A model generated the notes under the pieces. That model did no database searches, was not told the DNA's origin, and was given only the letters and a program-made list of their open reading frames with translations. DNA of 64,000 nucleotides from a virus (taxonomy: Duplodnaviria > Heunggongvirae > Uroviricota > Caudoviricetes): the IMG/VR virus record IMGVR_UViG_3300037466_003234; one strand, written 5' to 3'. The position numbers were made by a program, and so were the translations under genes. Shown here piece by piece: positions 6,399-41,461 of the stretch; the first letter of the stretch is position 1, and every line of letters starts with the position of its first letter.

Positions 6399-6449
6399 GC
6401 TTAGAGAATATCTGACTAAAGAAATAAGCGCAATAAGAAAAATAAGGAA

Positions 6450-7328: not shown

Positions 7329-7329
7329 A

Positions 7330-9998: not shown

Positions 9999-10035
9999 AG
10001 TGCCGTCATATACGCATGGTACATGCGCGTCAAGT

Positions 10036-10200
10036 GGATTATAGAAGTTATAGGCTGGTTTATAGAACGGTTATAGAAGGGGGCCGTTTTGTTATAGTTA
10101 AGTAACAGCGCCCCTTTGTTACTTTAAAATAACGGTTCCGAAAAAAATTTTTGATATCAGGTAGTTAGACGATATCTGGAAAAAAATTTTGGAAAAAATT
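10036..10200. promoter_or_regulatory. iteron array plus AT-rich tracts; candidate replication origin / divergent control region
   Basis: Five TTATAG(A/G)A repeats at roughly 10.5-bp phasing (10039-10100). Inverted repeat AAGTAACA-n9-TGTTACTT. Duplicated GAAAAAAATTTT tracts flanking two GATATC sites. Confidence 0.35.
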
Positions 10201-11238
10201 AAAGTGTTTGTATGTCGGTATACAAGGGGGGTTAAGGCAGCTGTGTCACACAAACCCCGGAAACCGGTTTTTATGTCTGGTTCCGTATACTTAGCGCATG
10301 TAAGCAAGCCGCATGCCGTTACATGTGTCTGTATATAAAGCTGACACCTAGACAGCCAACAAAGAGTGTGCCAAATCAAAGACCGTGCCAGCTGTCAGCT
10401 TTGACATGGACATAGCCTAGACTAGACAAGGCCTAGTCATGCCGTGGAATAATCCCTAGCCGGCCTAGCCTAGCCGCGCCTAGAGACTTCAAGGGGTTAG
10501 GCGCTTGCGCTTAGTCGTGTCGTAATGAGTTGATTAGTTGACGGTCTTATTAATAAATAACGCGGTTTTTGTTAATAAGGCCTAAGCCTATTAAAGCCGC
10601 ATTGCATACGCTGGACGCACGAATGCACCGCGTGCATTTAGCCGCGATGCTGCAGACCATTAGAGACTATACGCGGCGGAAAAGGACCGCTTTTAGTCAA
10701 GGTCTAGGAAAAGCCACCTAAAGGCTAATCGTGTAGTGTGTCGTTTGGGACACATGTTAATTCTGACGCAGCTACTCTAGGCGCGGCTATACTAGCCGAT
10801 CTATTCCCGCTAGGGTATTCCCTGCTATAGGTCAGAACTGACACACCTACTCTTTTTGCCCTTATTTGCGTTATGCCGTTAGGCGGACTAGCAAGGTCAA
10901 GGCAACTAGATAGGCAAGTTTTAGGGTAAGGCCTAGCCGTCTAAACGAAAGGGTTTATAGGGCAAGCTAACGCGTCGTATGAGGGGTTAGCATTCTAGTT
11001 AGGCTTAAGATTGGATCGCCTAGGCGTTAATTAACGCTAATTCGTATAAGTTTTAGCCAGTGTTAAAGCCTTAGACGGTGCGCTAAGCGCCGAATATGAC
11101 TCAGCTATTCAAGATAGGGCCTAATAAAATCAGATACTTAGACGGCGCTATAGGTCATAGGGCTAAATCCTTATTTTGCTTATATTGTTAACTGGCATAT
11201 GCGATGCATTAACTATCGGCATAACGAAAGGGTTAAAT

Positions 11239-11358
11239 ATGACTAAGCCTAAGTTCTGCCTAGCTAACAAGTTCTGCGTCATGATCGGCATTATGGGGGT
11301 TAGACATATCAGACGCGCTAACCGCATTAAAGAGATTTTGGCCCAATTGGGCGAATAA
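11239..11358 (+). CDS. small protein (39 aa)
   Basis: ATG preceded by the conserved ATAACGAAAGGGTTAAATATG motif. Confidence 0.35.
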   Translation: MTKPKFCLANKFCVMIGIMGVRHIRRANRIKEILAQLGE

Positions 11359-11385
11359 CGGATAACTAAACGAAAGGGATAGAAT

Positions 11386-11616
11386 ATGACTAACGCTAAA
11401 ATCAGTTTTTCAGCTAGTGGCGTCGTGACTCAAGACGTGACTATTCTAGTAGACGGTTTAACGGTTAGCGATCTAGTCAAGGGTTTACAGGAAGGGCTTT
11501 ATTTAACCACAATGCAAGGCGATCGGATTATAAATAGCGAGACATTGCAACCGGTTGCTATCATTGAGGATATGGATACACAACTAGAATATGTTGATTT
11601 TGAATCAGAGGGTTAA
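11386..11616 (+). CDS. hypothetical early protein
   Basis: Conserved AACGAAAGGGATAGAATATG initiation motif. Confidence 0.55.
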   Translation: MTNAKISFSASGVVTQDVTILVDGLTVSDLVKGLQEGLYLTTMQGDRIINSETLQPVAIIEDMDTQLEYVDFESEG

Positions 11617-11618
11617 TT

Positions 11619-11906
11619 ATGACACAGGCCTATGTTTTAAGCTCTATTTTTGGCATGGCTAAAGCCACAATTAACAAGACTAAGCAAGGCTATACGTTGC
11701 ATATCGCTTTAACGCCTAAGGGAAGTCTGAAAGTTGCCAAGTATTTAACACAATCCGGCCATAGACGCAAAATTGACGCGCTTAGGTCATGGGAAGAGTT
11801 AGCCACTAGATTGGAAGTTGAATTGCAGCAATTGCAGGTTAACCATACTGGCCATTGCTTTAGCATTCCTTGCCATTGTAACAAAAAAGACTGTTGTCCG
11901 TTTTAA
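11619..11906 (+). CDS. hypothetical early protein (C-terminal Cys cluster)
   Basis: GAGGG SD; translationally coupled. Confidence 0.5.
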   Translation: MTQAYVLSSIFGMAKATINKTKQGYTLHIALTPKGSLKVAKYLTQSGHRRKIDALRSWEELATRLEVELQQLQVNHTGHCFSIPCHCNKKDCCPF

Positions 11907-11933
11907 TTTAACGAAAGGGATAGGGTTAATTAT

Positions 11934-12398
11934 ATGGGAGTTGACACGCGGCTTTATATTGCATCTAAATGGCAAGTTAGCGACATTAAAAAGGTTTTAG
12001 AGCGTACCTTTAACGTCACGGCTAGCGTAGAGATGCCATTAAAAGACACTTGCAACTATTTTAGATTAAACTTTACGGCGCCAGATGGCGAAAATCGCAG
12101 TATGTCAATTCATACACAGTCTAGCCATAATGGCTTTGAATGCACGACGCTTAGCCTAGGGTGTGGCGGTATGGCTATTGAGATCATGCAAGCGCTTGCC
12201 GATACCTTTGGCGGGTTTTTGCAAAAATATGACTCCGACGAAACATACCACGGCATTAGGGGCAAGCTAGACGATTGTGATAACTTGCCGTTCTGGATTA
12301 AAGACGCTATTCTAGCCGGCATTGATCCCGATAGCCTTGAAGAGTTAAAAGCCCATATTGCTAAAACTACAGCACGTTGGAAGTCTAACGGATTGTGA
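11934..12398 (+). CDS. hypothetical early protein
   Basis: AACGAAAGGGATAGGGTTAATTATATG motif. Confidence 0.55.
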   Translation: MGVDTRLYIASKWQVSDIKKVLERTFNVTASVEMPLKDTCNYFRLNFTAPDGENRSMSIHTQSSHNGFECTTLSLGCGGMAIEIMQALADTFGGFLQKYDSDETYHGIRGKLDDCDNLPFWIKDAILAGIDPDSLEELKAHIAKTTARWKSNGL

Positions 12399-12417
12399 AT
12401 AGTGGCTAAGCCTTGAT

Positions 12418-12450
12418 CACTGGCTAAAAGATCGCCATATTATTAAATTA
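12418..12450 (+). promoter_or_regulatory. sigma70-like early promoter, family copy 1
   Basis: CTGGCT-AAAAGATCGCC...-TATTAA. Member of the conserved AAAAGATCTAC family. Confidence 0.4.
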
Positions 12451-12553
12451 ACAATATAAGGAAAATAAGGCGTTAGCGTTGGCATTCTAGGTGCATAACC
12501 CTATACCATGACGCGGCGCTAACGACGCCGAACGGATAACGAAAGGGATAGTT

Positions 12554-12910
12554 ATGCAAGGCATGAGAAAAACAGGAGTTAGAACGGTTAACGTATATTG
12601 TGGCGCCGTCTATGGTAACGGCAAGCGTGCAAGCGGTTGCGGCGCTAAACCTAAATCTAGCGGCTTTAACGAGTATGCCTATAATCCAGACGGTTATAAA
12701 TCGCTATGGTCTACGGTTAGCCTCTGCCCAAAGTGTGAAGCTAGGGTTATCGTTATGCTTAGAACCTCTAGCGGTGCATTCTATGCGTCTAGTGATCGCG
12801 ATTTAAAGAAGTTGAAACGCACTGGCTTAGGCAACTTAGGTTATTTGTCTCTAGGCTTGCTTGCTAGTCACGTTGCTAAACATGGCTATAACGTTGCAAT
12901 TTTGGGATAA
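12554..12910 (+). CDS. hypothetical early protein (CxxC pairs)
   Basis: GATAACGAAAGGGATAGTTATG motif. Confidence 0.55.
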   Translation: MQGMRKTGVRTVNVYCGAVYGNGKRASGCGAKPKSSGFNEYAYNPDGYKSLWSTVSLCPKCEARVIVMLRTSSGAFYASSDRDLKKLKRTGLGNLGYLSLGLLASHVAKHGYNVAILG

Positions 12911-12925
12911 CGAAAGGGATTAGTT

Positions 12926-13117
12926 ATGTTTATTTTGATCAACTCTAAAGCTCAATGGCGTGAGTATTATAAAGGCATGATGTGCGGCGTTATCGTTGAA
13001 GTATCGCCCGAATTCGAGGAGGCAGTCACATTTGACACAGAGCAAGCCGCACTAAAAGAACGTGACACTAACCACGCGTTTTTAAAAGACTTTAAAGTCA
13101 TGCGCGTTAACGGATAA
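12926..13117 (+). CDS. hypothetical early protein
   Basis: Motif GATAACGAAAGGGATTAGTTATG. Confidence 0.5.
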   Translation: MFILINSKAQWREYYKGMMCGVIVEVSPEFEEAVTFDTEQAALKERDTNHAFLKDFKVMRVNG

Positions 13118-13132
13118 CGAAAGGGATAGATT

Positions 13133-13429
13133 ATGCAATGCTTAGCCAGTGAATTAAAGTCAATTGCTCAAAAATCAGTAGATCAAAGCGAGGTTAAAAC
13201 AATCGTCAATAGCCTTATAGACAAAGCTAAAGAAGCGGCTCAACTAGGCCGGACCTATATGGTTATAAAGCTTTTAGGCGACGCATATAAAACCCGCTTT
13301 GAATATAGCGAGTATAATAAAGACAAAGCCTTGCAAGTTGCCGTTAAAGAACACTTGATCAATCTAGGCTTTGATTTTGAATACCGCCATGGGGTTAACG
13401 GACTATATGCGGTTATGATCTGGGGTTAG
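13133..13429 (+). CDS. hypothetical early protein
   Basis: Motif GATAACGAAAGGGATAGATTATG. Confidence 0.5.
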   Translation: MQCLASELKSIAQKSVDQSEVKTIVNSLIDKAKEAAQLGRTYMVIKLLGDAYKTRFEYSEYNKDKALQVAVKEHLINLGFDFEYRHGVNGLYAVMIWG

Positions 13430-13605
13430 ATATGAGACTAGTTAAACTTATACTAACGCCGCTATTTAGGCTTGCATGCATGATTAGGCGTTATCATAAC
13501 TTCGATACGTCTAAAGTGTTATGGCATTCGTGCAAGCTATGCGGAAAAACTAAATATTGGGTTATGGGTAAGGGTTATCAATTCTAAGCTATTGAAAGGA
13601 TTAGT

Positions 13606-13737
13606 TATGTTGCGGCTTCGTTATGTTAGATATTGTGCAATGTGCTGTAATTACGTTGACTTAGAAGAGCATGAGGATCACGACGCGGAAAGTGTAGAAC
13701 TTTCAGACGATAGTCAAGAACTTAAACAGGCTGCCTA
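13606..13737 (+). CDS. small Cys-containing protein (43 aa)
   Basis: AAAGGATTAGTTATG motif variant. Below the track cutoff. Confidence 0.3.
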
Positions 13738-13862
13738 GACACAGTGTCATTAAGACCTGAAGGAAAATAAGGATTTAGCGATTTTAGCAATTGGCATACT
13801 GGCTGCAATAGATAGATGCATAACGAACGGCGTTAACGACGCCATAACGAAAGGGATAGGTT

Positions 13863-14678
13863 ATGTTAAATAATCAAGTTGCTAAAATCGTAAACCCAAT
13901 CGATCAAGTCAAGGCATTTGTAGAGCGTGACTCATATGGCTTTGTTAATACTCGCGAAGTGTTAGACATTTTCGGTCAAGCTGGATGGTCGCCAGTTAGC
14001 GAGTCATACGGCAAGGTTAAAAAGGAAGAGAAAAAGGGTTATCAAAAACACTTGATTAGACTCGAAAATCCAGCTTTTCCAGCTATTGAGGGGTTGACCG
14101 ATGCAAATAAGTCTAGGCCTCAATTAGTCGTGCTCAATAGTCACGACGGCTCTAGCAGCTTGCAAATCATGTGGGGCCTTATTCGTATCGCTTGCCTCAA
14201 TGGAATCATTGCCGGCACTGGCATTAATGGCGTTAGAATTGTTCACTCTAAATCGATCGTGGACAAGTTGCCTAGCGGTATTGACTATATGTTGAACAAC
14301 TTTGGCAAGTTCAATAGCCAAATCAAAGAGTTGCAAGGTAAGCAATTGAGCGCTGCAGCAACTAAAGAGTTGATTAAAATCGTATACGATGAGCGTCTGA
14401 AAGGTGTGTCTAACTTGACACAGGTCAACTATGACTTGATCCGTTCGCGCCGCATTGAGGATAACGCTAGCGACGCCTATACGATCTTTAACCGCGTGCA
14501 AGAAGCTCTAATGCGTGGCGGTATTCAATATCAATACCTTAAGCAATTTAAAGACGATAACGGCGCGGTTATCGGCTCAAAGCTCATAACGACGCATACC
14601 GGAAAAATCAGCGCGGTAACGAGTCAAGTAAAGCTTAATCAGCTTGCCTATGACACGGCGCTAAACCTTGCCGCATAA
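13863..14678 (+). CDS. hypothetical protein, possibly DUF932-like phage/plasmid family
   Basis: Motif CATAACGAAAGGGATAGGTTATG. LVVLNSHDGSSSLQIMWGLIRIACLNG resembles DUF932, from memory only. Confidence 0.55.
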   Translation: MLNNQVAKIVNPIDQVKAFVERDSYGFVNTREVLDIFGQAGWSPVSESYGKVKKEEKKGYQKHLIRLENPAFPAIEGLTDANKSRPQLVVLNSHDGSSSLQIMWGLIRIACLNGIIAGTGINGVRIVHSKSIVDKLPSGIDYMLNNFGKFNSQIKELQGKQLSAAATKELIKIVYDERLKGVSNLTQVNYDLIRSRRIEDNASDAYTIFNRVQEALMRGGIQYQYLKQFKDDNGAVIGSKLITTHTGKISAVTSQVKLNQLAYDTALNLAA

Positions 14679-14837
14679 TCTCTAGCGGCCTAAAACAGGG
14701 GTTAGGTTATCACGTTGCCGATCGCCTAACCCCTCATACTAAAAGGCTAGTCTATGGCTTTAGCTATTATAACGGTTATCAAGGTTTTAGCGGTTATAGG
14801 CCTAATAAGCATTCTAATTAAATCGGCTAAGCTTTGA

Positions 14838-14872
14838 ACACTGGCTAAAAGATCTACAGATTTTAAATTTAA
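14838..14872 (+). promoter_or_regulatory. sigma70-like early promoter, family copy 2
   Basis: CACTGGCTAAAAGATCTACAGATTTTAAATT. The ~100-bp flank is near-identical to the 12.41-12.50 kb copy. Confidence 0.4.
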
Positions 14873-14972
14873 CAATATAAGCAAAATAAGGCGTTAGCGT
14901 TGGCATTCTAGGTGCATTAACTAGATGCATAACGAACGGCGATAACGACGCCACTAACGAAAGGGATAGGTT

Positions 14973-15275
14973 ATGTTTCAAGTAAAGAATATTGTTAGAG
15001 TTGATAGCGAGACTGTTAAAGTCACGGTTACGATGGACGCTAAAGAATTTAACAAGGCTAAAAAACAGGGATTAGGTCAACTCTTTGGTATCGATATCTC
15101 TAACCACGTCTTTAGGGAATATGGCATTAAAGCCTATAACCCTAGCGTTGACGGCATTAAGTCTCGCGCCGTTCAAGGCGTTAAAACCCTGCAGCTTTAC
15201 TATAAAGATGACGCATGGGTCTACAATGACAACGTTGTCAGAGTTGATTTTGCAGCTAAACGCGTTGCGGCCTAA
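14973..15275 (+). CDS. hypothetical early protein
   Basis: Motif CTAACGAAAGGGATAGGTTATG. Confidence 0.55.
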   Translation: MFQVKNIVRVDSETVKVTVTMDAKEFNKAKKQGLGQLFGIDISNHVFREYGIKAYNPSVDGIKSRAVQGVKTLQLYYKDDAWVYNDNVVRVDFAAKRVAA

Positions 15276-15349
15276 ATAAGAAAATAACGTTTGACGCGCC
15301 GCACGAATTAACGCATACTAGATTTAACGGATAACGAAAGGGATAGGTT

Positions 15350-16162
15350 ATGGACATCACTAAAAAACTTGACATGATTGTTAATGCCAACGAATTGTTA
15401 AGCGAAATGTTTCCTAATAAACATAAGGATATTAAGCTAGACGAAGTTGAGGCAGTCTATAGCCGCAACGTGCTAGGCATTCAAGCCGATGCAAAAACTA
15501 AGAAAGGTACCGGCAAGGGATATTTAACCGGCATTATGTACCTTGCACCTGCTAGCCTTAGCGGCGTCAATATCTGCCCTAAATCTAGTGCGGGTTGCCG
15601 GTCCGCTTGCCTGTTTAGCGCCGGACGTGGACGCTTTTATAGCATCACGCGGGCGCGTATCGTTAAAACGCTTGCATATCACTTGGATACGCCGCGCTTT
15701 GTCGAAACTATTAAAAAATCGATCAAGTCTCTAATCGTAAAGGCTAAAAATCAAGGCCTAATCCCGGTTGTTAGGCTCAATGGCACATCGGATATTCTTT
15801 GGGAACGTACCACGGATATTTTGCAGACATTCCCCGATGTGCAATTCTATGACTATACTAAAATTGCTAAGCGGTTTTTGTTCAGTATTCCCGCTAACTA
15901 TCACTTGACGCTATCGCTTAGCGAGGATAACGATAACGACGCTAAGCTTGCACTATCCAAAGGCTTTAACGTTGCTGCAGTGTTTCGTAAAGAGTTGCCG
16001 TCAAGTCTCTTCGGCTATGATGTAACTAGCGGCGACGAAACTGATTTAAGGTTTTTAGATCGGCGCGGCGTCGTCGTGGGCCTTAAGGCTAAAGGCAAGG
16101 CTAAAACCGATCAATCTGGCTTTGTTAGGGATTATAGCAGCGCGGCTAAGATCGCCGCATAA
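15350..16162 (+). CDS. Cys-cluster protein (C-x6-C-x3-C), possibly Gp37/Gp68-like
   Basis: Motif GATAACGAAAGGGATAGGTTATG. NICPKSSAGCRSAC Cys triad; family assignment tentative. Confidence 0.55.
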   Translation: MDITKKLDMIVNANELLSEMFPNKHKDIKLDEVEAVYSRNVLGIQADAKTKKGTGKGYLTGIMYLAPASLSGVNICPKSSAGCRSACLFSAGRGRFYSITRARIVKTLAYHLDTPRFVETIKKSIKSLIVKAKNQGLIPVVRLNGTSDILWERTTDILQTFPDVQFYDYTKIAKRFLFSIPANYHLTLSLSEDNDNDAKLALSKGFNVAAVFRKELPSSLFGYDVTSGDETDLRFLDRRGVVVGLKAKGKAKTDQSGFVRDYSSAAKIAA

Positions 16163-16178
16163 CGAAAGGGAATCAATA

Positions 16179-16286
16179 TGTTAACTCAAGTTGTGCAAAA
16201 TACCGCGCCAGTGCTAGCGATTGTGCAAGCGGTTGTCTTGATCACTAGCGGCGTTATCATGGCTATCTATTCAGTCTCGAAAGGTT
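16179..16286 (+). CDS. small membrane peptide (35 aa)
   Basis: Motif ATAACGAAAGGGAATCAATATG. Hydrophobic VLAIVQAVVLITSGVIMAIY. Confidence 0.35.
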
Positions 16287-16292
16287 AAACCA

Positions 16293-16454
16293 TATGCCTA
16301 ACTACAGTCGAAACATTGGCTCTAGGGTTAAAGTTGCGCCTAACAGTCTCATTCAAGTTGACGGCAAGACTTATAGGGTTATCGATTCTAAAGAATTGCA
16401 TACCCGCAACGCTAAAGGTTTTAGGTTTTATTTAACGATTAGCCTAGTTGTCTA
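16293..16454 (+). CDS. small protein (53 aa)
   Basis: AAAGGT SD. Confidence 0.3.
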
Positions 16455-16466
16455 GGTCAGATTAAA

Positions 16467-16492
16467 CACATGTGTCAATGGTGACACATGTG
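16467..16492. promoter_or_regulatory. perfect 11-bp inverted repeat CACATGTGTCA-atgg-TGACACATGTG (operator candidate)
   Basis: Seen directly. Lies just upstream of the SD/ATG of the 16530 gene. TGTGTCA reappears at 17021-17030, 10252 and 10740. Confidence 0.4.
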
Positions 16493-16529
16493 TCATAACG
16501 GACACACTGTGTCAGATAGGAGATATGTC

Positions 16530-16982
16530 ATGGGATACTCACACTATTTTACTTTTAAGCCAGTCAATGAACGTCAATGGCGGGATATTGAAACGCGATA
16601 TAAAAAGGCTATTTTAGACTGCCAACGTATCGTTAAAGCATGGTATTCAAAGCATGGCCGGTTATCAGGCTATTCAGCGCATACGCCGCTAGGCCGTTAT
16701 GGCGGTCTAAAGGTTAACGGCAAGGGCATTGATGCATGTGAGGCATTCGAGTTGCGCGAACATTATGGGCAAAATCTCCGCGATTTTAAAGGCTATTGCA
16801 AGACTAACGGCTTGCCCTATGACACGGTTGTCACGGCATGCCTTGCCGTTCTTAAGCATCGCTTAGGCGATGCGATCCAATTGCATAGCGACGGCAACCG
16901 CCACGACTGGAGTTATGGGGTTAGGCTTGCTAGGCGCGTAACTGGCCTTAAGCTCAAAAACCCTATCGTGTGTCTTGATTAA
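16530..16982 (+). CDS. hypothetical protein
   Basis: ATG (MGYSHYF...) with TAGGAGA SD. The track start at 16488 lies inside the palindrome region. Confidence 0.5.
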   Translation: MGYSHYFTFKPVNERQWRDIETRYKKAILDCQRIVKAWYSKHGRLSGYSAHTPLGRYGGLKVNGKGIDACEAFELREHYGQNLRDFKGYCKTNGLPYDTVVTACLAVLKHRLGDAIQLHSDGNRHDWSYGVRLARRVTGLKLKNPIVCLD

Positions 16983-17059
16983 CTGGATACAATCAGGCCT
17001 ATGTCTTGACCAGACACAGGGATGTGTCAAAACGGCCACATGGCCAAAGGAAAGTTGTT

Positions 17060-17479
17060 ATGGGTTACAACACGACGCTAATTATCCTAAACGATGCGTT
17101 ACATGAGATTAAAGACGATAAAGACTTTGGAGCTAAGGTCTATCATGCTGCAATTCGAGTGTCAGGCAATTTAAAGCCCATCGATATATCTAGCGGTCAC
17201 TTCGCTAACGCAGCAACGGTAATAGAGATGCATCATGCCGACGAAATCAAATTGCTTGCTGTTGGCGGTAATTATGCACAAGACTTAGGCTATATGGGCA
17301 ACTATCGGTCTAAGCCAACTGACTGGCTTAAAGCGCTTGCAGATTCCCTAGGCTATCGCGTATCTAAAAAGCCAGGTGTCTGCACTGATTGTTATGTTGC
17401 TAGGCGCGTAGGGCCACTAAAGAACCCGCCATGCGATAAATGCGGAGGGAGGGGGAGGGTCAAAAAACGCTCTAAATAA
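17060..17479 (+). CDS. hypothetical protein with C-terminal zinc ribbon
   Basis: ATG (MGYNTTLI...) with AAGGAAAG SD. CTDCY...CDKCGGRGRV. Confidence 0.5.
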   Translation: MGYNTTLIILNDALHEIKDDKDFGAKVYHAAIRVSGNLKPIDISSGHFANAATVIEMHHADEIKLLAVGGNYAQDLGYMGNYRSKPTDWLKALADSLGYRVSKKPGVCTDCYVARRVGPLKNPPCDKCGGRGRVKKRSK

Positions 17480-17518
17480 TTGGGTTTTTCAGAAGTGTTT
17501 TTTGGATAGAGAGGATCA

Positions 17519-17747
17519 TATGAGCACCACTAGATTTTGTGGCACTTGCTGTAGCAAGCCTAAGATGTGCGAGAATTGTATGGAAGCCACACTGCTATGC
17601 AATGGCTTGTCAGTGAATAAAGAGAATATGGATAAGCTTCGCGCCGTAGAGAGTGCCGAGCGCTCGCGATGGTTTGGAGCTAACGCATACACCTGGGTCG
17701 TCATGGACATTGCTAGAGGGGAGGGGGTTAAAAATGCACTTAGATAG
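17519..17747 (+). CDS. Cys-rich small protein
   Basis: ATG with AGAGAGGA SD. Upstream TTTTCAGAAGTG-TTTTTTGGAT motif. Confidence 0.45.
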
Positions 17748-17787
17748 AGACTATTTTCAGAAGTGATTTTTTGATTGAAAGGATCTT

Positions 17788-18015
17788 ATGCCTAAAGCAA
17801 TTAATCAGTATGTTACTGACTCTGTTAAGTCTTGGTATGTAAATAGAAAAACCTATTGCCTTATCAAGAATGCTGGTCAAGGCGATGAATACTTAGTGCG
17901 GGTTATTCCCGATGGACGCGACGCGGTTAGCTATTGGCTTAATAAAGGCCAAACATGGGAAACCGAGAGCGGCGCCGCATGGTCTATTCTTAATGATTTA
18001 GATGAAAGTGAGTGA
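17788..18015 (+). CDS. hypothetical small protein
   Basis: Upstream TTTTCAGAAGTGATTTTTTGATTGAAAGGATCTTATG. Confidence 0.5.
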   Translation: MPKAINQYVTDSVKSWYVNRKTYCLIKNAGQGDEYLVRVIPDGRDAVSYWLNKGQTWETESGAAWSILNDLDESE

Positions 18016-18260
18016 TTATGCCAAAGACTGAAGTATCCGTAACCTGTAACGACGGTACTAAATTTAAAATCTATTACGATAAGAAACATATGGAATACGT
18101 TCTATCCTATCGTAATGATCGCAAGGCTTTGCCAGCTGGTAACGGCCAAAAGATCAAGGGTAAGTGGCTTTGTCTTGATAGACAACCGTTCTATTCAGAC
18201 GCATTAGACTTTATGTGTGACGAGATCAAACAAATCGACGCCAAAGAAGGAGCTGGCTAA
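18012..18260 (+). CDS. hypothetical small protein
   Basis: ATGA overlap coupling. Confidence 0.5.
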   Translation: MIMPKTEVSVTCNDGTKFKIYYDKKHMEYVLSYRNDRKALPAGNGQKIKGKWLCLDRQPFYSDALDFMCDEIKQIDAKEGAG

Positions 18261-18267
18261 GAATTAA

Positions 18268-18302
18268 ACACTGGCTAAAAGATCTACGAGTTTGTAAAAT
18301 AG
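18268..18302 (+). promoter_or_regulatory. sigma70-like promoter, family copy 3
   Basis: CTGGCT-AAAAGATCTACGAGTTTG-TAAAAT (18-nt spacer). Confidence 0.45.
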
Positions 18303-18391
18303 CGATTTAATAAAAACAACAACTTAGACATGGCACGGTCGCTGCAATAGATAGCTGCATAACTGAACGTATCCTGAGGGAGGATAAACAA

Positions 18392-18610
18392 ATGACCAAC
18401 GGCAAATATAAAGTTACTTTCGAAGTTGAAATTGTTGGCATGCAAAACGGCCAAGAAGCCACGCACGCTATTGTTGATATGTTCAACGAAATGCGCGACA
18501 ACGAAGAAGCTCCGGCTATGGAATTCGAATTGATCGAGGAAGGCGTCGAGCAAGAATACTTGGAAGAAGAGGAAGAAGTCGAGGAGCTAGACCTTGAGCA
18601 AGCAAGTTAA
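18392..18610 (+). CDS. acidic small protein
   Basis: GGGAGGA SD. Glu-rich C-terminus. Confidence 0.5.
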   Translation: MTNGKYKVTFEVEIVGMQNGQEATHAIVDMFNEMRDNEEAPAMEFELIEEGVEQEYLEEEEEVEELDLEQAS

Positions 18611-18827
18611 AAAGTTATCCAAAAGACTCAGTAAAACCAAAGATGTTTTTAACTCTTTAAAGAAAGGATCTAAAATTCACGATACTTGGTATGGTAATGG
18701 AGTTGTGGTTAAAACCTTAAAGACTCGCATTCATATCAAGCTGTACTCTAGCGACGAGATCTATAGCTATGATAAAGCCCACGTAAACGGTTTTATTAAG
18801 CTTGGATACTATCGCCCGAGTAAATAA
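18594..18827 (+). CDS. basic small protein (probable TTG start)
   Basis: GAGGAG SD 8 nt before a TTG. Confidence 0.4.
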   Translation: MSKQVKKLSKRLSKTKDVFNSLKKGSKIHDTWYGNGVVVKTLKTRIHIKLYSSDEIYSYDKAHVNGFIKLGYYRPSK

Positions 18828-18883
18828 GTGTCCCCAATCCTAGCGGAGTCGTTAACCGCTAGTTGTCCTATCCCATCCGTGAC

Positions 18884-18920
18884 GGCGCTACTCGAAAGGG
18901 TAGCGCCGTTTTTTATTTTG
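18884..18920 (+). terminator. intrinsic terminator
   Basis: GGCGCTAC-tcgaaag-GTAGCGCC then TTTTTTATTTT. Confidence 0.6.
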
Positions 18921-18943
18921 CGCTGTAGTGTTTAAGTATTGTA

Positions 18944-18976
18944 CGTTGATTAAAAGATCTACAGCTTTGAAAATAA
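18944..18976 (+). promoter_or_regulatory. sigma70-like promoter, family copy 4
   Basis: TTGATT-AAAAGATCTACAGCTTT-GAAAAT. Confidence 0.45.
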
Positions 18977-19156
18977 CGAATTTAACGATTTCAACACTTT
19001 AGGAATGGCACGAGCGTTGCTTATATATAAGGCATGAGTGATCAAGTAGTTACGATAGTTTGGATGATCGCATGGATCGCTCTAGGAACCTGGGCTGGAA
19101 ACAGGTTTCAAAATAGAAAGTCTAAATAACAGCACTGATACTGCAACAGGAGTTAT

Positions 19157-19369
19157 ATGGCAATGTCTAATAAGGAAGTTAAGAAACCTCTCGAAATTAA
19201 AGATTTAAACGATGTTTTTCATTACCTCGCCCAAATCCAAGAAGAGCTTGAGATTCGAGGTTATCAGCAAGCCGCACTGCATGTGCATAAGTCGATCAGC
19301 AGTCTAAACGGCGCCATGCTACTAGATGCTGCGAGGAAAAGAACAGCTGACAAAGCTAACGCTTGTTAA
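19157..19369 (+). CDS. hypothetical small protein
   Basis: AGGAG SD. Confidence 0.5.
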   Translation: MAMSNKEVKKPLEIKDLNDVFHYLAQIQEELEIRGYQQAALHVHKSISSLNGAMLLDAARKRTADKANAC

Positions 19370-19410
19370 TTATTCTTGACCGCAAAGCATGACTATTATA
19401 ATCTAATAAG

Positions 19411-19722
19411 ATGAACACTCGCGATCTGATGGACTTCGGCCCACGAGAGCGGCGGTTAGCTGCTGAACTCCTATTACTCTTTAGGAGTCCACGAGATAAA
19501 ACGCTCCGGCTAGGGGAGTTTGTTTCGCCAGAATATAACCCCATTTCAAAAATCGTTTTCTTAGTAGACATTAACTTTAATGTCGGCATGGTGCGCGATG
19601 GATACTTAGAGGATTGGTATATCTGCCCCATGTGTAAAGAGGAAGGCTTTGGGGATGCCCTGGCCAAAGGCAAGGTTTGTTGTAGATCATATCTGAAAAG
19701 AGAAATTCCGATCGCTGCTTGA
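19411..19722 (+). CDS. hypothetical protein (CxxC...CC)
   Basis: Preceded by TTGACC-n15-TATAAT. Near-leaderless. Confidence 0.45.
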   Translation: MNTRDLMDFGPRERRLAAELLLLFRSPRDKTLRLGEFVSPEYNPISKIVFLVDINFNVGMVRDGYLEDWYICPMCKEEGFGDALAKGKVCCRSYLKREIPIAA

Positions 19723-19773
19723 TTGGCAAGCCGATTGCATATAGCCGCGCTTTCTTAGCACATGTACCTCCAA

Positions 19774-19812
19774 AGGACACCTATCAGCTGATCGGTGTCC
19801 TTTTTCATTTTT
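19774..19812 (+). terminator. intrinsic terminator
   Basis: AGGACACC-loop12-GGTGTCCT then TTTTTCATTTTT. Confidence 0.6.
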
Positions 19813-20069
19813 GCAACCAAAAAAATGTAGACAGCTCAATTTTGTCACTGAATAATATTATTAAACTAAAAAACGGTCTAAATTAAAAATGAATAATGGA
19901 TTAAAATTTAAGATGTTATCGAATAAAAAACGTATTTAACGATACTATTTTTAGTTGACCATTTTAGTATGTTTAAGCTACTATTAATTCATGGGAGCAA
20001 AGAAGTCTCTCAAATTGGCTAAGGAAATGGCCAGAATCAACAACTCCAGTATGGAGAGAAAGTAGTAAC

Positions 20070-20309
20070 GTGGCACGTATGAGCAATGTAATCATTGGTA
20101 ATTTTGGCTTTGGTGGTCGAGCATACAGCGAATGGGGCTGGACTCGCGCAGTGCTACTAAATCCTGTGGACTATAGAAATGGAGAAGTAATCATTCCCGC
20201 AGGTACGGAGATCGTAGTGGATACGTTTAAAAATGTTGGACGGTTGAATGACGAAGACTTCGAAGTATTTCCAGATGAGTATATGCTGCTAGCGGAAGCT
20301 GCAAACTAA
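20070..20309 (+). CDS. hypothetical small protein
   Basis: ORF. Upstream TTGACC-n18-TACTAT promoter-like sequence. Confidence 0.45.
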   Translation: MARMSNVIIGNFGFGGRAYSEWGWTRAVLLNPVDYRNGEVIIPAGTEIVVDTFKNVGRLNDEDFEVFPDEYMLLAEAAN

Positions 20310-20333
20310 AACGTTTAAGTAGAGTCGCAACAA

Positions 20334-20366
20334 ATGCCGCTCCTTGCAAAGGGAGCGGCATTTTTC
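20334..20366 (+). terminator. intrinsic terminator
   Basis: ATGCCGCTCC-loop-GGAGCGGCAT then TTTTTCATTT. Confidence 0.6.
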
Positions 20367-20433
20367 ATTTATAACATTTGATTTTGCCATATTCCCATGG
20401 TACGCGCTCAACAAATACGCTTTGGGGGAGACA

Positions 20434-20772
20434 ATGAAAGATATTCTGATTATTGAGGAGGACCAGGCCATTAGAGAGGTTCTAGGTCTTTATTGTAATC
20501 ACTGCAGGCAAAATTGCATATGTGTGTGTAATATTGGCGAGGGATTTAAGGAGCTAGAAAAGAAAAATCCATCCCTTATTCTGCTAGATCTAAGTTACCA
20601 TACCGAAAACCTACCAGAATTTATCCGTAAGGCCAGACAATCGGTCTCTAATCCTCGTATTTTTATAATGAGCGCCATGAATGGCGCCGAAGAAATTGCA
20701 AGAAATAATGATGTAAGCTTCATTGCAAAACCTTTTCATCTTGATTTGATTGAGAAAATCATTTGCGAATAA
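20434..20772 (+). CDS. stand-alone response-regulator receiver (REC/CheY-like) domain protein with Cys-rich insertion
   Basis: ILIIEED...LILLDLS...IFIMSA...FIAKPF matches REC acidic pocket, phospho-acceptor Asp, S/T and Lys. CNHCRQNCICVCN inserted after beta1. GGGGAGA SD. Confidence 0.7.
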   Translation: MKDILIIEEDQAIREVLGLYCNHCRQNCICVCNIGEGFKELEKKNPSLILLDLSYHTENLPEFIRKARQSVSNPRIFIMSAMNGAEEIARNNDVSFIAKPFHLDLIEKIICE

Positions 20773-20950
20773 GATGTGAAGAATTCGTCAAAATAATTGT
20801 TGACGCGAGGCAACAATTAACGTATTCTGATATTAGAAACGATCGCAAATTAATAAAACTCTAAGAGTCAGCGGTCATTTCTCAACAATACAAAATGAAG
20901 TACGTGTGGAAGCGTACAAGATAAACGAAAGGTAAAAAAGGTAAACGATA

Positions 20951-21535
20951 ATGAGTCAAAGTGTGAAGTTGAACGGAAGCCGACTGCATAGCATCACCCA
21001 TGCATCTCACAGCGCAGAAGTAACAATGACAGCATTAGCATTACGTGAACGTAACCGGCATTTCTCGGACATTGGCCGGACCCGAACCGCTCTTATCCGC
21101 GCAGGAGAGCGTATTGTTGACGAAGAGTATCGAAGGTTTTGGATTGACCTTGAAAAGGAAGGCGTTGGCAAAATCGTTTATGGAAGACGCGGAAACCCAG
21201 ACCGGTTTGAATGGTACCACGCGCTTAAGATGGTTGCCGATTGCGCATTAACCGGCAAGGATATAACCATTGAGCCACAATCGATGTTGCAAGCTGAGGA
21301 AGAAAAACCAGCTCCTAAGAAGGCAGCTGCACCTAAGAAGTCGGTGCGCATGACCAGTGCGCAAAAGAAAGATAAGGTCGAACATGCCGAAGTTGCTTCG
21401 GCTAAAGGTTCTGCTGAAAAGCTCGTGGTTATTCCATTGAGAAAAGACTTTTTCCTTGAAGTCAAGATGCCAGCTGACGTTTCTAAGGATGAAATGGAAG
21501 TCATTCAGGAAGCTTTGAAACGCGCTTCAGCATAA
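20951..21535 (+). CDS. hypothetical protein with Lys/Ala-rich linker
   Basis: AAAGGTAAA SD. Upstream TTGACG-n17-TATTCT with an 8-bp IR over the -35. Confidence 0.55.
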   Translation: MSQSVKLNGSRLHSITHASHSAEVTMTALALRERNRHFSDIGRTRTALIRAGERIVDEEYRRFWIDLEKEGVGKIVYGRRGNPDRFEWYHALKMVADCALTGKDITIEPQSMLQAEEEKPAPKKAAAPKKSVRMTSAQKKDKVEHAEVASAKGSAEKLVVIPLRKDFFLEVKMPADVSKDEMEVIQEALKRASA

Positions 21536-21567
21536 TAAGGAGAATTTAAGCAAAACAAAACATTTAG

Positions 21568-21601
21568 GCCGGAGCGGAAACGCTCCGGCTTTTTTATTTT
21601 T
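21568..21601 (+). terminator. intrinsic terminator
   Basis: GCCGGAGCG-gaaa-CGCTCCGGC then TTTTTTATTTTT. Confidence 0.7.
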
Positions 21602-21628
21602 ATGGCGTTGATGTTTAAGATATATACA

Positions 21629-21662
21629 GCTGTATAAAAGATCTACGAGTTTTGAAATTAAC
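21629..21662 (+). promoter_or_regulatory. sigma70-like promoter, family copy 5
   Basis: TGTATA-AAAGATCTACGAGTTTT-GAAATT. Confidence 0.4.
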
Positions 21663-21732
21663 TATTTCGTTATTTTCGCTATTTACGAGCGGCATAGACC
21701 ATGCAACACTAGTCAGCAAGGAGATAAACAAT

Positions 21733-22464
21733 ATGTTTAACACAGATAGAGGATCTAAAATGGCAGCTTATAAAATCGGTATCGTCGGCGCTATGTGCGT
21801 CGCCGCTAGTATTCTGAGCGGATGCGGCGGGGCTCCACAAATGGCAGCCGCTCCGAGCGTACCGGTAGACGTTGGCCCTGGCCCTAAAGATGATGGTTAC
21901 GTAGTTCGCGGCGTAGCTCTTTACACCATTAGCAATGAGCAACAAACGGCGCTAATGAAGCTCTTTAACCTCGCTATGCCCACGGCATACGCTGCAACCG
22001 GTAGCACGACTGTTACCTATGTAAACGCAGCATCAGTTAACTTCTCTATCAACGTATCTAATTTCGCAGCTGGATCATTTACCGGTAACACGCTAAGCCT
22101 TGGACATGTTGACCTTGGCTCAATTGACGATAACAATCTAAAGGTATGCGGCGCGGGCGGTAACTCCAAATGTAGCTCTGCAGTGATTCGCGTATATACG
22201 ACTGGATCTATTGCGGGCTTTGTAAATACCGCCGATGGCTATGGCGCTCCGGTCTATGCGGGATCGCTTAACCCATCGACCGCTGTGGGCCTAACTTCGG
22301 CCAATAGCGTCCAGGTTCAGACCTATACTATCCCTTCTAGCGATCACCGCATTACCACGTCAGACTTTGCGTCAACTCAATACGCTGTTAGTTCTGACTT
22401 CGCAAATGCTGGCGCGGGCTCCTATAGCATGACCTTTGTGGTCGAGTACGCTCTCGCTCCTTAA
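21733..22464 (+). CDS. lipoprotein (lipobox LSGC)
   Basis: AAGGAGA SD. MAAYKIGIVGAMCVAASILSGCGG lipoprotein signal. Gly/Ser/Thr-rich mature region. Confidence 0.6.
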   Translation: MFNTDRGSKMAAYKIGIVGAMCVAASILSGCGGAPQMAAAPSVPVDVGPGPKDDGYVVRGVALYTISNEQQTALMKLFNLAMPTAYAATGSTTVTYVNAASVNFSINVSNFAAGSFTGNTLSLGHVDLGSIDDNNLKVCGAGGNSKCSSAVIRVYTTGSIAGFVNTADGYGAPVYAGSLNPSTAVGLTSANSVQVQTYTIPSSDHRITTSDFASTQYAVSSDFANAGAGSYSMTFVVEYALAP

Positions 22465-22492
22465 TTGTCTCCTTAACCCTCTATCCCCCAAA

Positions 22493-22526
22493 GCCTCTGC
22501 CTTAACTGGCAGGGGCTTTTTTGTTT
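22493..22526 (+). terminator. intrinsic terminator
   Basis: GCCTCTGCC-ttaact-GGCAGGGGC then TTTTTTGTTT. Confidence 0.6.
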
Positions 22527-22532
22527 AAGAGC

Positions 22533-22570
22533 TTGACACTGACTAAAAGATCTACGAGTTTTGAAAATAA
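22533..22570 (+). promoter_or_regulatory. sigma70-like promoter, family copy 6
   Basis: TTGACACTGACT-AAAAGATCTACGAGTTTT-GAAAAT. Confidence 0.45.
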
Positions 22571-22626
22571 GGAATTAAGGAAATTAACTACTTAGCTATG
22601 GCATGCCGGTTGCTACATATAGAGAC

Positions 22627-22776: not shown

Positions 22777-22827
22777 TTGACGGAATTAACGGATAACAAT
22801 AGACTGAAATTAACGGAAGGGAATAAT

Positions 22828-24879
22828 ATGAAACTCGCAAGCCATAACAATAAACTGGAAACGAACATTCAAGACGCTGAAACCCAAAACTTCGGAATTG
22901 GTGATGCAAGCGTTGTCATTGAAATTCTGCGGAACCGGCTCTATGAACACAAGATCCAAACGCTTGTTCAAGAATATATCTGCAATGCTCGCGACGCAAT
23001 GCGTGAATGCGGCAAGGCTAACGAATTCGAAGTGACTTGCCCTACCTCTTTGAGCCCTGTTTTTAAGGTGCGTGACTTCGGTCCTGGCATCTCCCCTGAT
23101 CGCATGGCTAACGTCTTCATCAAGTACGGCGCTAGCACTAAGCGTGACTCTAATAATCAGACTGGCGGCTTCGGCATTGGCGCTAAAAGCGCTTGGAGCT
23201 ACACCGATAGCTTCACGATTGTGACCTATATTGACGGTAACAAGCGCACCTATGTCGCGCATACCGGAGTCAACAATAACGGACGCCTGGACCTTTTGAG
23301 CACTGCTGCTACCTCGGAACCAAATGGAACCGAAATTCAAGTTCCTGTCGGTCGCTATGACCTTGACGAATTCCGCAGAGCTATCTATCGCGCTGTTTAC
23401 TTCTGGGAGTCTCGCCCAACCCTTAAGGGCGGAAACCACGAGTTGCCTACGCTTGTTGGCGGCGAGCGCATTAGCGATCTCGTCGAAGTGATCGATTATA
23501 AGATGCTCCCTGCCTTCTTGAACGTTGATTACTACGACAACATGCTTGCCGTGATCGATGGCGTGCCATACATGATCACCTCCAAACTCATGGATAAAGT
23601 CAAAAAGCTTAAAGATCTCAAGCAATTGACCAAACGATTCATTGTATTGCACTTTGGAAATGGTCTTGTGGAAGTCTCTGCAAGCCGCGAGTCTATCGCT
23701 GACTCAAAGGCTACAGTCGAAGGCCTGGAAAAACTTGCAGCGCAGGGGGTAGTGGCAATTAAAACCAAGATCTCCAGCGACTTTTCAAAAGTGAAATCTA
23801 GCTCGGATTTCTTTAAGACCTACCTTGCAATGGAACCATACTTCCATGTGGACAAGCTTGCTAAGTATGACGTTTATCAAATCGATGGAGGCTATGTTAA
23901 AGCTGACCTGCTCCATAAGGTTTCGTTGACTCGCATGCATATGTGGGGAAGAAATAGCCGCGTCCAGGTCGATCGCATCACCAAAGAGCAATTCGATCAA
24001 AGACAAAAGCAAAATGGCATTCGTCTTCAATACCTGAATAACGTTTACTTTCTTCGCGCATCTGAAAACGCTATTATCCAAAATAAGCGTCTGCGCGAAA
24101 ACATTGGCCCTAACTTGCCAGAAGTGCTCTTGATCGAGCAACTGGGCGATAACTCTGCGGAATTTGAGAAGTTAATTTTGGATCTGAATGCTAAAGACTT
24201 CCAAACGCTGACCTACGTAGAAAAGCCAAGGGCTCCGCGTGTTAAGATCGAGCGCGATAAGCAAGAATTCTGCATCCATCAATTCTTGGGTGTAAGACAT
24301 CACTATACAAGTCTGGCAGATAACACAGATAAGTGGCTCTATATCCCAATGAGCGGCGGCAGTCTTACAAACTTCTCAAATGTGGACCTTAAAGACGTAG
24401 CTTATTTCGTTAAAGAAACTACTGGACTTATCGTCTGCGGGCTCTCTGAGAACGTTGTGGAGAAGGTGAAAGATAACGCAAATTTCTTGCCATTCTCCGA
24501 ATGGATCGCAAAATTTAAACCTACCGACAAACAAATGGCTTATGTTAAAATGATGGAAGGCAAGAATACCAGTGTCATGTCGATCCTTTCTAAGCTGAAA
24601 GGTCTTAAGGATAAGTTTATTCTTGAAATGATTGAGGAATATAAGGGTGCAGTGAGAAACGATTTTTCTGGCGATCCGGTCCCTAAAATGTTCCTTGAGC
24701 TTATCAAGAACAGTGAAGAATATAAGGAATTCGTCAACAAAGACGGTAAGTTGAAAGATCTTATTGGAAGCAAATATAGACTTCTGAGCATGCTCGATGA
24801 CTACTATTTTTCCAAATCGACAAAATACGCTGAAGAAATCGTTATTTATATGAACGCTAAACACAAGGCTAAGGCTTAA
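22828..24879 (+). CDS. rIIA: rIIA-like protein (GHKL/HATPase_c N-terminal domain)
   Basis: ATG with GGAAGGGAA SD (the track start is a TTG). N-box EYICNARDAM, G1 VRDFGPGIS, G2 GGFGIGAKS. About 680 aa, immediately upstream of rIIB. Confidence 0.8.
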   Translation: MKLASHNNKLETNIQDAETQNFGIGDASVVIEILRNRLYEHKIQTLVQEYICNARDAMRECGKANEFEVTCPTSLSPVFKVRDFGPGISPDRMANVFIKYGASTKRDSNNQTGGFGIGAKSAWSYTDSFTIVTYIDGNKRTYVAHTGVNNNGRLDLLSTAATSEPNGTEIQVPVGRYDLDEFRRAIYRAVYFWESRPTLKGGNHELPTLVGGERISDLVEVIDYKMLPAFLNVDYYDNMLAVIDGVPYMITSKLMDKVKKLKDLKQLTKRFIVLHFGNGLVEVSASRESIADSKATVEGLEKLAAQGVVAIKTKISSDFSKVKSSSDFFKTYLAMEPYFHVDKLAKYDVYQIDGGYVKADLLHKVSLTRMHMWGRNSRVQVDRITKEQFDQRQKQNGIRLQYLNNVYFLRASENAIIQNKRLRENIGPNLPEVLLIEQLGDNSAEFEKLILDLNAKDFQTLTYVEKPRAPRVKIERDKQEFCIHQFLGVRHHYTSLADNTDKWLYIPMSGGSLTNFSNVDLKDVAYFVKETTGLIVCGLSENVVEKVKDNANFLPFSEWIAKFKPTDKQMAYVKMMEGKNTSVMSILSKLKGLKDKFILEMIEEYKGAVRNDFSGDPVPKMFLELIKNSEEYKEFVNKDGKLKDLIGSKYRLLSMLDDYYFSKSTKYAEEIVIYMNAKHKAKA

Positions 24880-27285: not shown

Positions 27286-27391
27286 TTCAAATGGCTATGT
27301 TCTTATTTAAGGACGTAGCCATTTTTTTAAAATAATAGTTGACGTAAATAGTCAGATACAGCATACTAAGAATATAAGAATCGAGGAACGT

Positions 27392-41451: not shown

Positions 41452-41461
41452 GACGTTAAAG

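Follow-up and report, generated by a model that had tools for sequence, protein, structure and literature searches.

Promoters that depend on sigma-54 stay silent until they are fired by an ATP-driven activator, and their defining -24/-12 signature consists of a GG and a GC doublet 10 nt apart with a T at -14, whereas promoters of the sigma-70 family have two elements about 17 nt apart (16-18-nt spacer). In sigma-54 promoters of the psp and nifH type the activator site lies at about -75 to -110 and a site for integration host factor (IHF) precedes the core; Escherichia coli pspA, Klebsiella pneumoniae nifH and Pseudomonas putida Pu are such IHF-site promoters. The activator sites of classical sigma-54 promoters are usually inverted repeats, and changes of their distance are tolerated. 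Here we analyse a 64,000-nt stretch (the window) of the uncultured tailed-phage record IMGVR_UViG_3300037466_003234 (Caudoviricetes), in which a short A/T-rich repeat, or box, had been described as the spacer of at least six near-identical sigma-70 promoters. The box turned out to belong to a composite cassette of ~110 bp, which carries a -24/-12 core at a fixed distance further downstream, and we put at roughly 0.6 the probability that it is the activator-binding (enhancer) part of six sigma-54-dependent promoters in a large lytic phage.

The repeated family proper was confirmed at the places where the original prediction had located it. A pattern scan of the window with AAAAGATCTACRRSTTTT, allowing up to two mismatches, gave matches at 14847, 18277, 18952, 21636 and 22545, all on the + strand, against 0.05 expected, and five matches were reached in none of 100 shuffles. 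A profile hidden Markov model (HMM) of all known copies found exactly six full copies in the window and no further ones. The repeat, AAAAGATCTAC, is represented by five strong copies and a degenerate one near 12424; the 18-nt segment described as conserved in all six is so in the five, while copy 1 has only CTGGCTAAAAGATC in common with the others and next reads GCCATATTATTAAATT. The flanking identity reported for copies 1 and 2 holds, with 91% identity over 89 bp and 83% over a further ~94 bp downstream, in the 5' untranslated region (UTR). All six cassettes lie in an intergenic gap in the same orientation as the downstream gene, and clear intrinsic terminators precede three of the six (cassettes 4, 5 and 6) rather than four, as had been counted; the terminator-then-promoter layout is also seen in one copy of the carrier locus L009. 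Being intergenic, co-oriented and often placed just past terminators, the elements are promoter-associated as proposed, but they are not of the sigma-70 type.

Alignment of 160 bp around each copy brought out a second conserved block 3' of the box, (T)GGCA(C/T)-N6-TGC(A/T), which was absent from the original prediction. In the window 12 matches to GGCAY-N6-TGCW were counted where 1.87 are expected, and none of 100 shuffles reached 12. Nine of these matches fall at 10.3-22.6 kb, all of them intergenic and aimed at the next gene; the remaining three are inside long open reading frames (ORFs), which is about the number expected by chance. The cores at 19006 (TGGCACGAGCGTTGCT) and 22599 (TGGCATGCCGGTTGCT) match TGGCAYG-N4-TTGCW perfectly (12/12), and those of the other cassettes depart from it at one to three positions (Table 1). 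T at -14 is invariant among the aligned cores, and GG-N10-GC is present in all six window cassettes and in 11 copies in relatives; GGTAC is seen in one copy from a relative. In 6/6 window copies AAAAGATC has its first A exactly 55 nt before GG, and CTAAAAG(A/T)TC begins exactly 57 nt before GG both in these six and in 11 copies on five other contigs. The 44 nt separating the box from GG are strongly diverged in sequence and constant in length: a spacing scan permitting 42-46 nt found only 44. The 10-nt gap between GG and GC is a geometry unfit for sigma-70-family promoters, and the core is very probably a sigma-54 promoter. An Rfam scan of 9.5-26 kb found no RNA family, and the core as an RNA hairpin was ruled out because GGCA and TGCW are not complementary.

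With the first G of GG numbered -25 and the predicted start placed ~12 nt past GC (GG+25), the upstream element extends from about -108 to -73 with the consensus YTAAG-N3-T(A/T)GACA-N5-CTAAAAG(A/T)TC, so that the box that was originally noticed is only its promoter-proximal end. The distal part, YTAAG-N3-T(A/T)GACA, covers about -108 to -88, and the box, cTGnCTAAAAG(A/T)TC, covers -87 to -73 and is centred near -78. The sequence downstream of the box is A/T-rich and variable, includes a TAAT(A/G)A tract near -49, and is followed by an IHF-like site at -43 to -31, between the upstream element and the core and in the register of WATCAANNNNTTR. Over 17 copies this register shows a mean of 1.9 mismatches to WATCAANNNNTTR against 5.9 ± 0.8 over other registers, and 6/17 copies have a single mismatch; AAACAACAACTTA, TTTCAACACTTTA and AAACAATTGGTTA are examples of the site. 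Because part of the sample was gathered by a pattern in which the spacing was fixed, as was the TTA of this site, the measures for both are somewhat inflated.

In pattern scans of public collections, cassettes of identical layout and spacing came up on the IMG/VR contigs 3300047994_000277 and 3300035698_005727 and, four times each, on SDBV01024833 and SDBV01028122 from metagenomes. A close relative, IMGVR_UViG_3300037423_001736 (170.1 kb), is ~79-100% identical to the window in aligned segments, mostly 92-100%. Other relatives, of 150-183 kb, include IMGVR 3300029922_000013, 3300005529_000023 and 3300050821_010761. By their accessions, the carriers derive from Sphagnum peat, from the Antarctic Ace Lake and from marine sediment of Loki's Castle. 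No protein similarity was detectable between the distant carrier loci and the window. One of them, L006, has the same cassette and encodes a family-A DNA polymerase interrupted by an intein and HNH (87-2720, - strand) and a VapE-type primase (5412-7346, + strand); given its lack of protein similarity to the window, the cassette is common to otherwise unrelated gene content. When 17 copies were aligned on GG, CTAAAAG(A/T)TC stood in one register in 17/17. Six copies on other contigs were found through the -24/-12 motif alone, and the box is in register in all six; four of these read AAAAGTTC and could not have been caught by a pattern containing the box. Identity between contigs is 0.76 for the box, 0.64 for the -24/-12 core (its six free positions included), 0.53 for the segment from -43 to -31 and 0.39 for the tail of the supposed spacer with its '-10', while the least-conserved adjacent segments are at 0.30-0.37. 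Neither megablast nor blastn found a nucleotide match in the isolate phage collection for 12-23 kb or 18.2-23 kb of the window, and in bacterial genomes the composite pattern matched only three times, always within coding sequence (e.g. the Lachnospiraceae apt gene). Two metagenome matches, L007 and L008, were set aside as chance matches in coding sequence.

The conservation also bears on the palindrome AGATCT, which had been proposed as the core of the element. Neither the palindrome nor a Dam GATC site can be its functional core: several relatives carry GTTC, GATT or GATA. Copy 3 of the nearest relative reads CTAAAAGATAACCGAAATAGCAAAAT and has lost GATC, AGATCT and TTTG-TAAAAT with its box core, the segment from -50 to -31 and the -24/-12 core intact, so that the palindrome and the hexamers belong to the recent copies of this genome and not to the element.

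Compared with pspA, nifH and Pu, the cassettes share GG at -24, GC at -12 and the 10-nt gap in an extended TGGCAC-N5-TTGCW consensus, a conserved upstream element (about -75 to -110), a site resembling the IHF consensus in between and the lack of sigma-70 hexamers. They differ in that at least six cassettes occur in a lytic-type phage of ~170 kb, and others on further phage contigs, at early-type genes; in the asymmetry of the upstream element and in its strictly constant distance and orientation; in several predicted leaderless mRNAs; and in that no cognate activator gene was found nearby. Sigma-54 promoters that combine an upstream activator site with one for IHF are textbook matter, and what appears new is their use as a family by phages: full-text literature searches turned up no phage with a described family of sigma-54 promoters, which is absence of evidence only, and to our knowledge there is no precedent for a repeated, partly leaderless family of this kind in lytic-type phages.

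The start codons offer a separate view of the start site. In six units an ATG follows the C of -12 by 13-16 nt, which puts it at +2, +3 or +5 relative to the predicted start: at 19034 and 22627 in the window, at ~9007 in L006 and in three units of L009 (GG at 6292, 4679 and 1819; ORFs of 162, 170 and 441 aa). No long ORF begins upstream of +1 in any unit. This caps the start site independently and is consistent with the position that sigma-54 geometry predicts. An ATG at or next to the predicted start implies a leaderless mRNA, and several cassette transcripts would be of this kind.

The following sequence of events may be envisaged. The host RNA polymerase holoenzyme with sigma-54 would occupy the core as a closed complex, the intervening DNA would be bent by an IHF-like protein or by intrinsic A-tract curvature, and an AAA+ activator bound at the upstream element (-108 to -73) would touch sigma-54 and open the promoter by ATP hydrolysis. 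Transcription would begin ~12 nt past GC, in several units at or next to the ATG, and the cassettes, often right past a terminator, would restart transcription of short groups of early-type genes that include rIIA and rIIB. What is observed is the arrangement of these elements, their spacing, their conservation and their gene context; dependence on sigma-54, binding of IHF and the role of the box as activator site are inferred.

Table 1. Cassettes, isolated cores, terminators and other mapped features of the window. Core mismatches are to TGGCAYG-N4-TTGCW; starts are predicted as GG+25 and are approximate.
Feature	Position	Strand	Upstream element and box	IHF-like site	Core	Predicted start	E value	Gene or context
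Cassette 1 (degenerate box)	12398-12506	+	Element 12398-12433; box CTAAAAGATC 12424-12433	12463-12475	GGCATTCTAGGTGCA 12481-12495; 2 mismatches	12506	3e-17 (nhmmer)	118-aa ORF 12554-12910
Cassette 2	14819-14927	+	Box CTAAAAGATC 14845-14854	14884-14896	GGCATTCTAGGTGCA 14902-14916; 2 mismatches	14927	2e-17	ORF 14973-15275
Cassette 3	18249-18357	+	Box 18275-18284	AAACAACAACTTA 18314-18326; 1 mismatch to WATCAANNNNTTR	TGGCACGGTCGCTGCA 18331-18346; 1 mismatch	18357	8e-21	ORF 18392-18610
Cassette 4	18924-19032	+	Box 18950-18959	TTTCAACACTTTA 18989-19001	TGGCACGAGCGTTGCT 19006-19021; 0 mismatches	19032		31-aa ORF, ATG 19034 (~+3); past terminator hairpin 18881-18910
Cassette 5	21608-21716	+	Box 21634-21643; 1-nt insertion in distal element	Weakest site, 4 mismatches	GGCATAGACCATGCA 21691-21705; 3 mismatches (by inspection)	21716	9e-14	243-aa ORF, ATG 21733
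Cassette 6	22517-22625	+	Box 22543-22552	AATTAACTACTTA 22582-22594	TGGCATGCCGGTTGCT 22599-22614; 0 mismatches	22625		47-aa ORF, ATG 22627 (~+3), then rIIA, rIIB; abuts terminator hairpin 22490-22519
Sigma-54-like core	13793-13807	+	No full box; degenerate TAGACAcagTGTCAttaag ~10 nt closer than in the six cassettes		GGCATACTGGCTGCA			5' of DUF932 gene 13863-14678; kept in relative L003
Sigma-54-like core	11194-11208	+	No box at -82		GGCATATGCGATGCA			First promoter-like site of the rightward gene block
Inverted copy, upstream element only	11034-11076	-	CTAAGgctTTAACACTGGCTAAAAct				0.057 (weak match)	~150 bp 5' of core 11194
Sigma-54-like core	10303-10317	-	No box; preceded by TGTCTAGGTGTC and two more TGGCAC motifs (10358-10390)		GGCATGCGGCTTGCT			Faces leftward genes
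Intrinsic terminator	18881-18920	+						Hairpin 18881-18910; 13-bp stem, 8 GC pairs, T-tail; directly 5' of cassette 4
Intrinsic terminator	21566-21601	+						Hairpin 21566-21591; directly 5' of cassette 5
Intrinsic terminator	22490-22529	+						Hairpin 22490-22519; T-tail enters distal part of cassette 6
Sigma-70-type family	15291-15319, 19376-19404, 20800-20828, 22777-22805, 27339-27367	+						Copy 22777 directly before rIIA (ATG 22828)
Sigma-70-type family	2436-2408, 42278-42250	-						
rIIA	22828-24879	+						
rIIB	24903-25799	+						

Several results weigh against the sigma-54 interpretation as a whole. The upstream element is asymmetric, resembling direct repeats GNYTAAG / GNCTAAAAG ~19 nt apart, and occurs in one orientation and at one distance. 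No sigma-54 activator (an AAA+ protein with GAFTGA) was found in the window, in the carrier loci L005, L006, L009 and L010, or in positions 5.4-107.9 kb of the 170-kb relative (~102 kb, 60% of the contig, comprising the whole early-type region and read as loci L098, L219, L228 and L247); the search combined tblastn with PspF and NtrC, scans for the GAFTGA and Walker-A motifs and an activator HMM of four sequences. RpoN was likewise not found in the searched sequence with a C-terminal fragment as the query. One near-start unit of L009 (GG at 1819) has an AGGAG Shine-Dalgarno sequence upstream of its predicted start. The nearest sequenced isolate, Myxococcus phage Mx1 (OR576727.2), contains no CTAAAAG(A/T)TC box and only 4 GGCAY-N6-TGCW in 170 kb, which is no enrichment, and the way in which the copies were sampled somewhat favours the fixed spacing and the IHF-like site, as stated above.

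Among the matches listed by two collection-wide scans for activators in viral contigs there was no related contig, and the activator-encoding viral loci that were examined are without the cassette. The 'AAA ATPase' of Mx1 was rejected as a sigma-54 activator, being a classical AAA protein of PF00004. As to the identity of the box, the motifs of NifA (TGT-N10-ACA), Fis and FleQ and PilR-like TGTC repeats were compared with it and none fits consistently. The occurrence of the cassette on contigs with unrelated gene content, together with the lack of an activator in the early region, weakly favours an activator encoded by the host.

Could the promoters depend on sigma-54 with the box serving another protein, such as a repressor, a timing switch or an architectural protein, while the activator acts from solution or from another site? 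The asymmetry of the box and its rigid position and orientation somewhat favour this, as do the cores 10303, 11194 and 13793, which have no box in register and suggest that a core may work alone; activators without a DNA-binding domain, such as FlgR and CtcC, are moreover established. We nevertheless consider it unlikely, since an element at about -107 to -73 with an IHF-like site before the core is the standard geometry of an activator site, and no candidate repressor was identified. In addition, an inverted copy of the upstream element, although a weak match, is found ~150 bp from the box-less core 11194 and is not followed by a -24/-12 motif on its own strand; such an arrangement would fit enhancer behaviour. 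The original prediction had reasoned that so strict a conservation points to an additional factor-binding site, and this remains the best explanation of the box.

A second alternative keeps the promoters and replaces the machinery: the core would merely resemble that of sigma-54 and be read by a phage sigma factor, a phage RNA polymerase or a modified host polymerase. The relative does encode, at ~93-94 kb (L228, 3813-4847, - strand), a homologue (37% identity) of the putative sigma-70-family factor of Mx1. Its gene adjoins genes for a helicase and a calcineurin-like phosphoesterase, as in Mx1, and packaging genes too, and GroEL and a Clp-like protease are also near. The failure to find a sigma-54 activator in the 60% of the relative's genome that was searched points the same way, as does the strict orientation and spacing of the box, which is typical of an extended core promoter. 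On the other side, the conserved positions are exactly the determinants of sigma-54 (GG, the 10-nt gap and TGC with T at -14, with two copies at 12/12), and factors of the sigma-70 family need elements ~17 nt apart, not 10. The position of the putative phage sigma gene suggests a late factor, whereas the promoters serve early-type genes including rIIA and rIIB, and Mx1 has the sigma homologue without having these motifs. Overall, this explanation appears quite improbable.

Mx1 resembles the present phage in size (169.6 kb; the close relative has 170.1 kb), in its major capsid protein (55% identical) and in having genes for DUF932, NAMPT, GroEL, a helicase and the putative sigma factor in common with it; it differs in GC content (55.5% against ~45% here). 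The links to isolates and other phages are at the protein level only, namely with Mx1 through the capsid and with huge uncultured phages through a 1176-aa protein. The early region of Mx1 at 67-121 kb (L012-L013) has another over-represented motif, AGATCCGCTAG / GGATCTGCTA, in 5-6 copies, which may be an early promoter or operator family of its own.

The sigma-70 model, with CTGGCT as the -35 hexamer, GAAAAT as the -10 hexamer and the 18-nt spacer as a site for an extra regulator or for sigma appropriation, is very unlikely to be correct. It has in its favour that five window copies share TTT(T/G)-(G/T)AAA(A/T)T past the box, that the elements are intergenic with three past terminators, and that some copies have, just 5' of the box, a T(A/T)GACA reminiscent of a -35 hexamer. 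The hexamers proposed are, however, poor matches, and 0/6 elements were called by a permissive consensus scan of 9.5-25.5 kb (at least 4/6 matches in each hexamer, A2 and T6 in the -10, spacer of 16-18 nt), which gave 34 matches in total against 30.3 ± 5.0 by chance. The '-10' with the spacer tail is conserved neither in copy 1 nor in copy 3 of the nearest relative (GATAACCGAAATAGCAAAAT), and stands at 0.39 identity in 10 copies on more distant contigs; T(A/T)GACA taken as the -35 yields such -10 candidates as GAGTTT, ACAATT and CAGCAT. The model also leaves the invariant GG-N10-GC at a fixed 55 nt unexplained. The conservation between contigs is the reverse of what it would demand, with the core of the 'spacer' at 76% and the '-10' with the spacer tail at 39%, and the box lies upstream of a -24/-12 core instead of forming a spacer. 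Appropriation of the MotA/AsiA type requires a conserved sigma-70 -10, which is absent here. The start that was originally predicted, ~7 nt past GAAAAT, lies ~50 nt upstream of the predicted sigma-54 start.

A further objection to this model is that the same phage possesses a much better sigma-70-type family, TTGACG-N17-CATACT. Its members consist of an A/T-rich tract (e.g. AAAATAATTG) and then TTGAC(G/C)-N17-(C/T)AtaCT, and one copy other than that before rIIA precedes the tRNA cluster. Members of this family and sigma-54-type cassettes are interleaved, and the two promoter classes together probably give two regulatory or temporal inputs. The order of cassette 6, the 47-aa ORF, a sigma-70-type promoter and rIIA means that rIIA and rIIB would be served by both.

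The middle promoters of T4, which consist of a MotA box and rely on sigma appropriation by AsiA, offer a parallel. They too form a second class among the ordinary sigma-70-type promoters of an early region, require an extra factor bound upstream (predicted from sequence in the present case) and serve genes of the rIIA/rIIB type. T4 retains the sigma-70 -10, with the MotA box at -30 in place of the -35, whereas here no -10 is conserved, the core is at -24/-12 and the factor site is at -82.

Promoter-early-stem-loop (PeSL) cassettes reportedly occur in the hyperplastic regions of T4-type phages, and share with the present ones the repeated intergenic terminator hairpin and promoter beside small, fast-evolving early genes and the flanking identity, a layout that holds for the three terminator-preceded window copies and the L009 copy mentioned above; PeSL promoters are sigma-70 early promoters, in contrast to the sigma-54-type core with an upstream element found here. 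That the repeats are boundaries of such mobile or recombinogenic cassettes, conserved through recent duplication, is hardly credible in spite of the ~100-180 bp shared by copies 1 and 2 (5' UTR included), the fast-evolving region in which terminator-promoter units flank small ORFs in short groups and the same cassette on contigs without detectable protein similarity, because conservation is patchy (box, IHF-like register and GG/TGC kept, the rest diverged) and spacing is kept across contigs of different habitats, the opposite of a recent copy, and a role in recombination would in any case be compatible with one as promoter.

The window belongs to a large tailed phage, in which tail sheath, major capsid protein, NAMPT, DUF932 and GP88 were found. 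The cassettes are situated in a rightward block that starts from a 1.2-kb non-coding hub (10.0-11.2 kb), and the many small ORFs of this block together with rIIA and rIIB mark it as an early-type region. The hub (10000-11200) separates divergent gene blocks and is rich in CTAG repeats (GCCTAG, CTAGGC, TGTCTAGGTGTC), with the TGGCAC motifs of its - strand arranged in tandem; its role could be regulatory, or that of an origin or a terminus. TGTCTAGGTGTC is also present near -100 of three promoters on SDBV01028122 (L010). A near-identical initiation block, (GGA)TAACGAAAGGGATAG(G/A)TTATG, stands before 11 consecutive genes at 10945-16175 (sites include 11369, 11910, 12538, 13116, 13846, 14956 and 15333) and nowhere else in the window. 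The block, TAACGAAAGGGATAG, is conserved far beyond the needs of a ribosome-binding site and may be the target of a translational regulator or an RNase. Past cassettes 1 and 2 and core 13793 there is a small 5' UTR hairpin, GGCG-nTAACGA-CGCC (12515-12535, 14935-14955 and 13825-13845, respectively; L003 ~185-205), with flanking TAACGA repeats; its stem is GCCG/CGGC in the 170-kb relative, a compensatory double change.

ARAGORN found eight tRNA genes, one of them (60958-61029, adjoining a tRNA-Ala) tRNA-like with an anomalous 2-nt anticodon ('tt'); six form a cluster at 41213-41917 on the - strand. Among the structural genes, the product of 47901-49190 (- strand; 429 aa) has a minimal CRISPR polymerase (mCpol) domain, and a 'nucleotide cyclase' is annotated in the head-gene region of Mx1. 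The 1176-aa protein (36642-40172, - strand) belongs to no Pfam or PHROG family, and its database relatives are only in uncultured phages of 460-640 kb (26-38% identity). A 17-nt unit, CATAACATCCCTACGGC, occurs four times in the window, one copy being in the ORF of this protein near 37100.

These results also show that the obvious sigma-70 reading of an A/T-rich repeat can mislead, the real sigma-70-type family being found here at other sites of the region. Short and sharply delimited, the cassettes are conserved across habitats and lend themselves to directly testable predictions, namely exact starts, dependence on rpoN and helical-face dependence of the box, which could itself be used as bait for the activator. 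If the proposed assignment is correct, the cassettes would be a tight on/off switch that could couple phage expression either to a signal from the host or to a dedicated activator of the phage. More tentatively, and with rather less confidence than in the assignment of the box, we suggest that a widespread clade of uncultivated lytic-type phages, comprising Mx1-like myoviruses of ~170 kb and the contigs from deep-sea sediment, an Antarctic lake and peat, may run part of its early programme through host sigma-54, with a host AAA+ protein recruited to CTAAAAG(A/T)TC. Infection would then be gated by the signalling state of the host and many transcripts would be leaderless, a strategy distinct from the phage programmes known to us, which use host sigma-70 with or without appropriation factors, phage sigma factors of the sigma-70 family or phage RNA polymerases.

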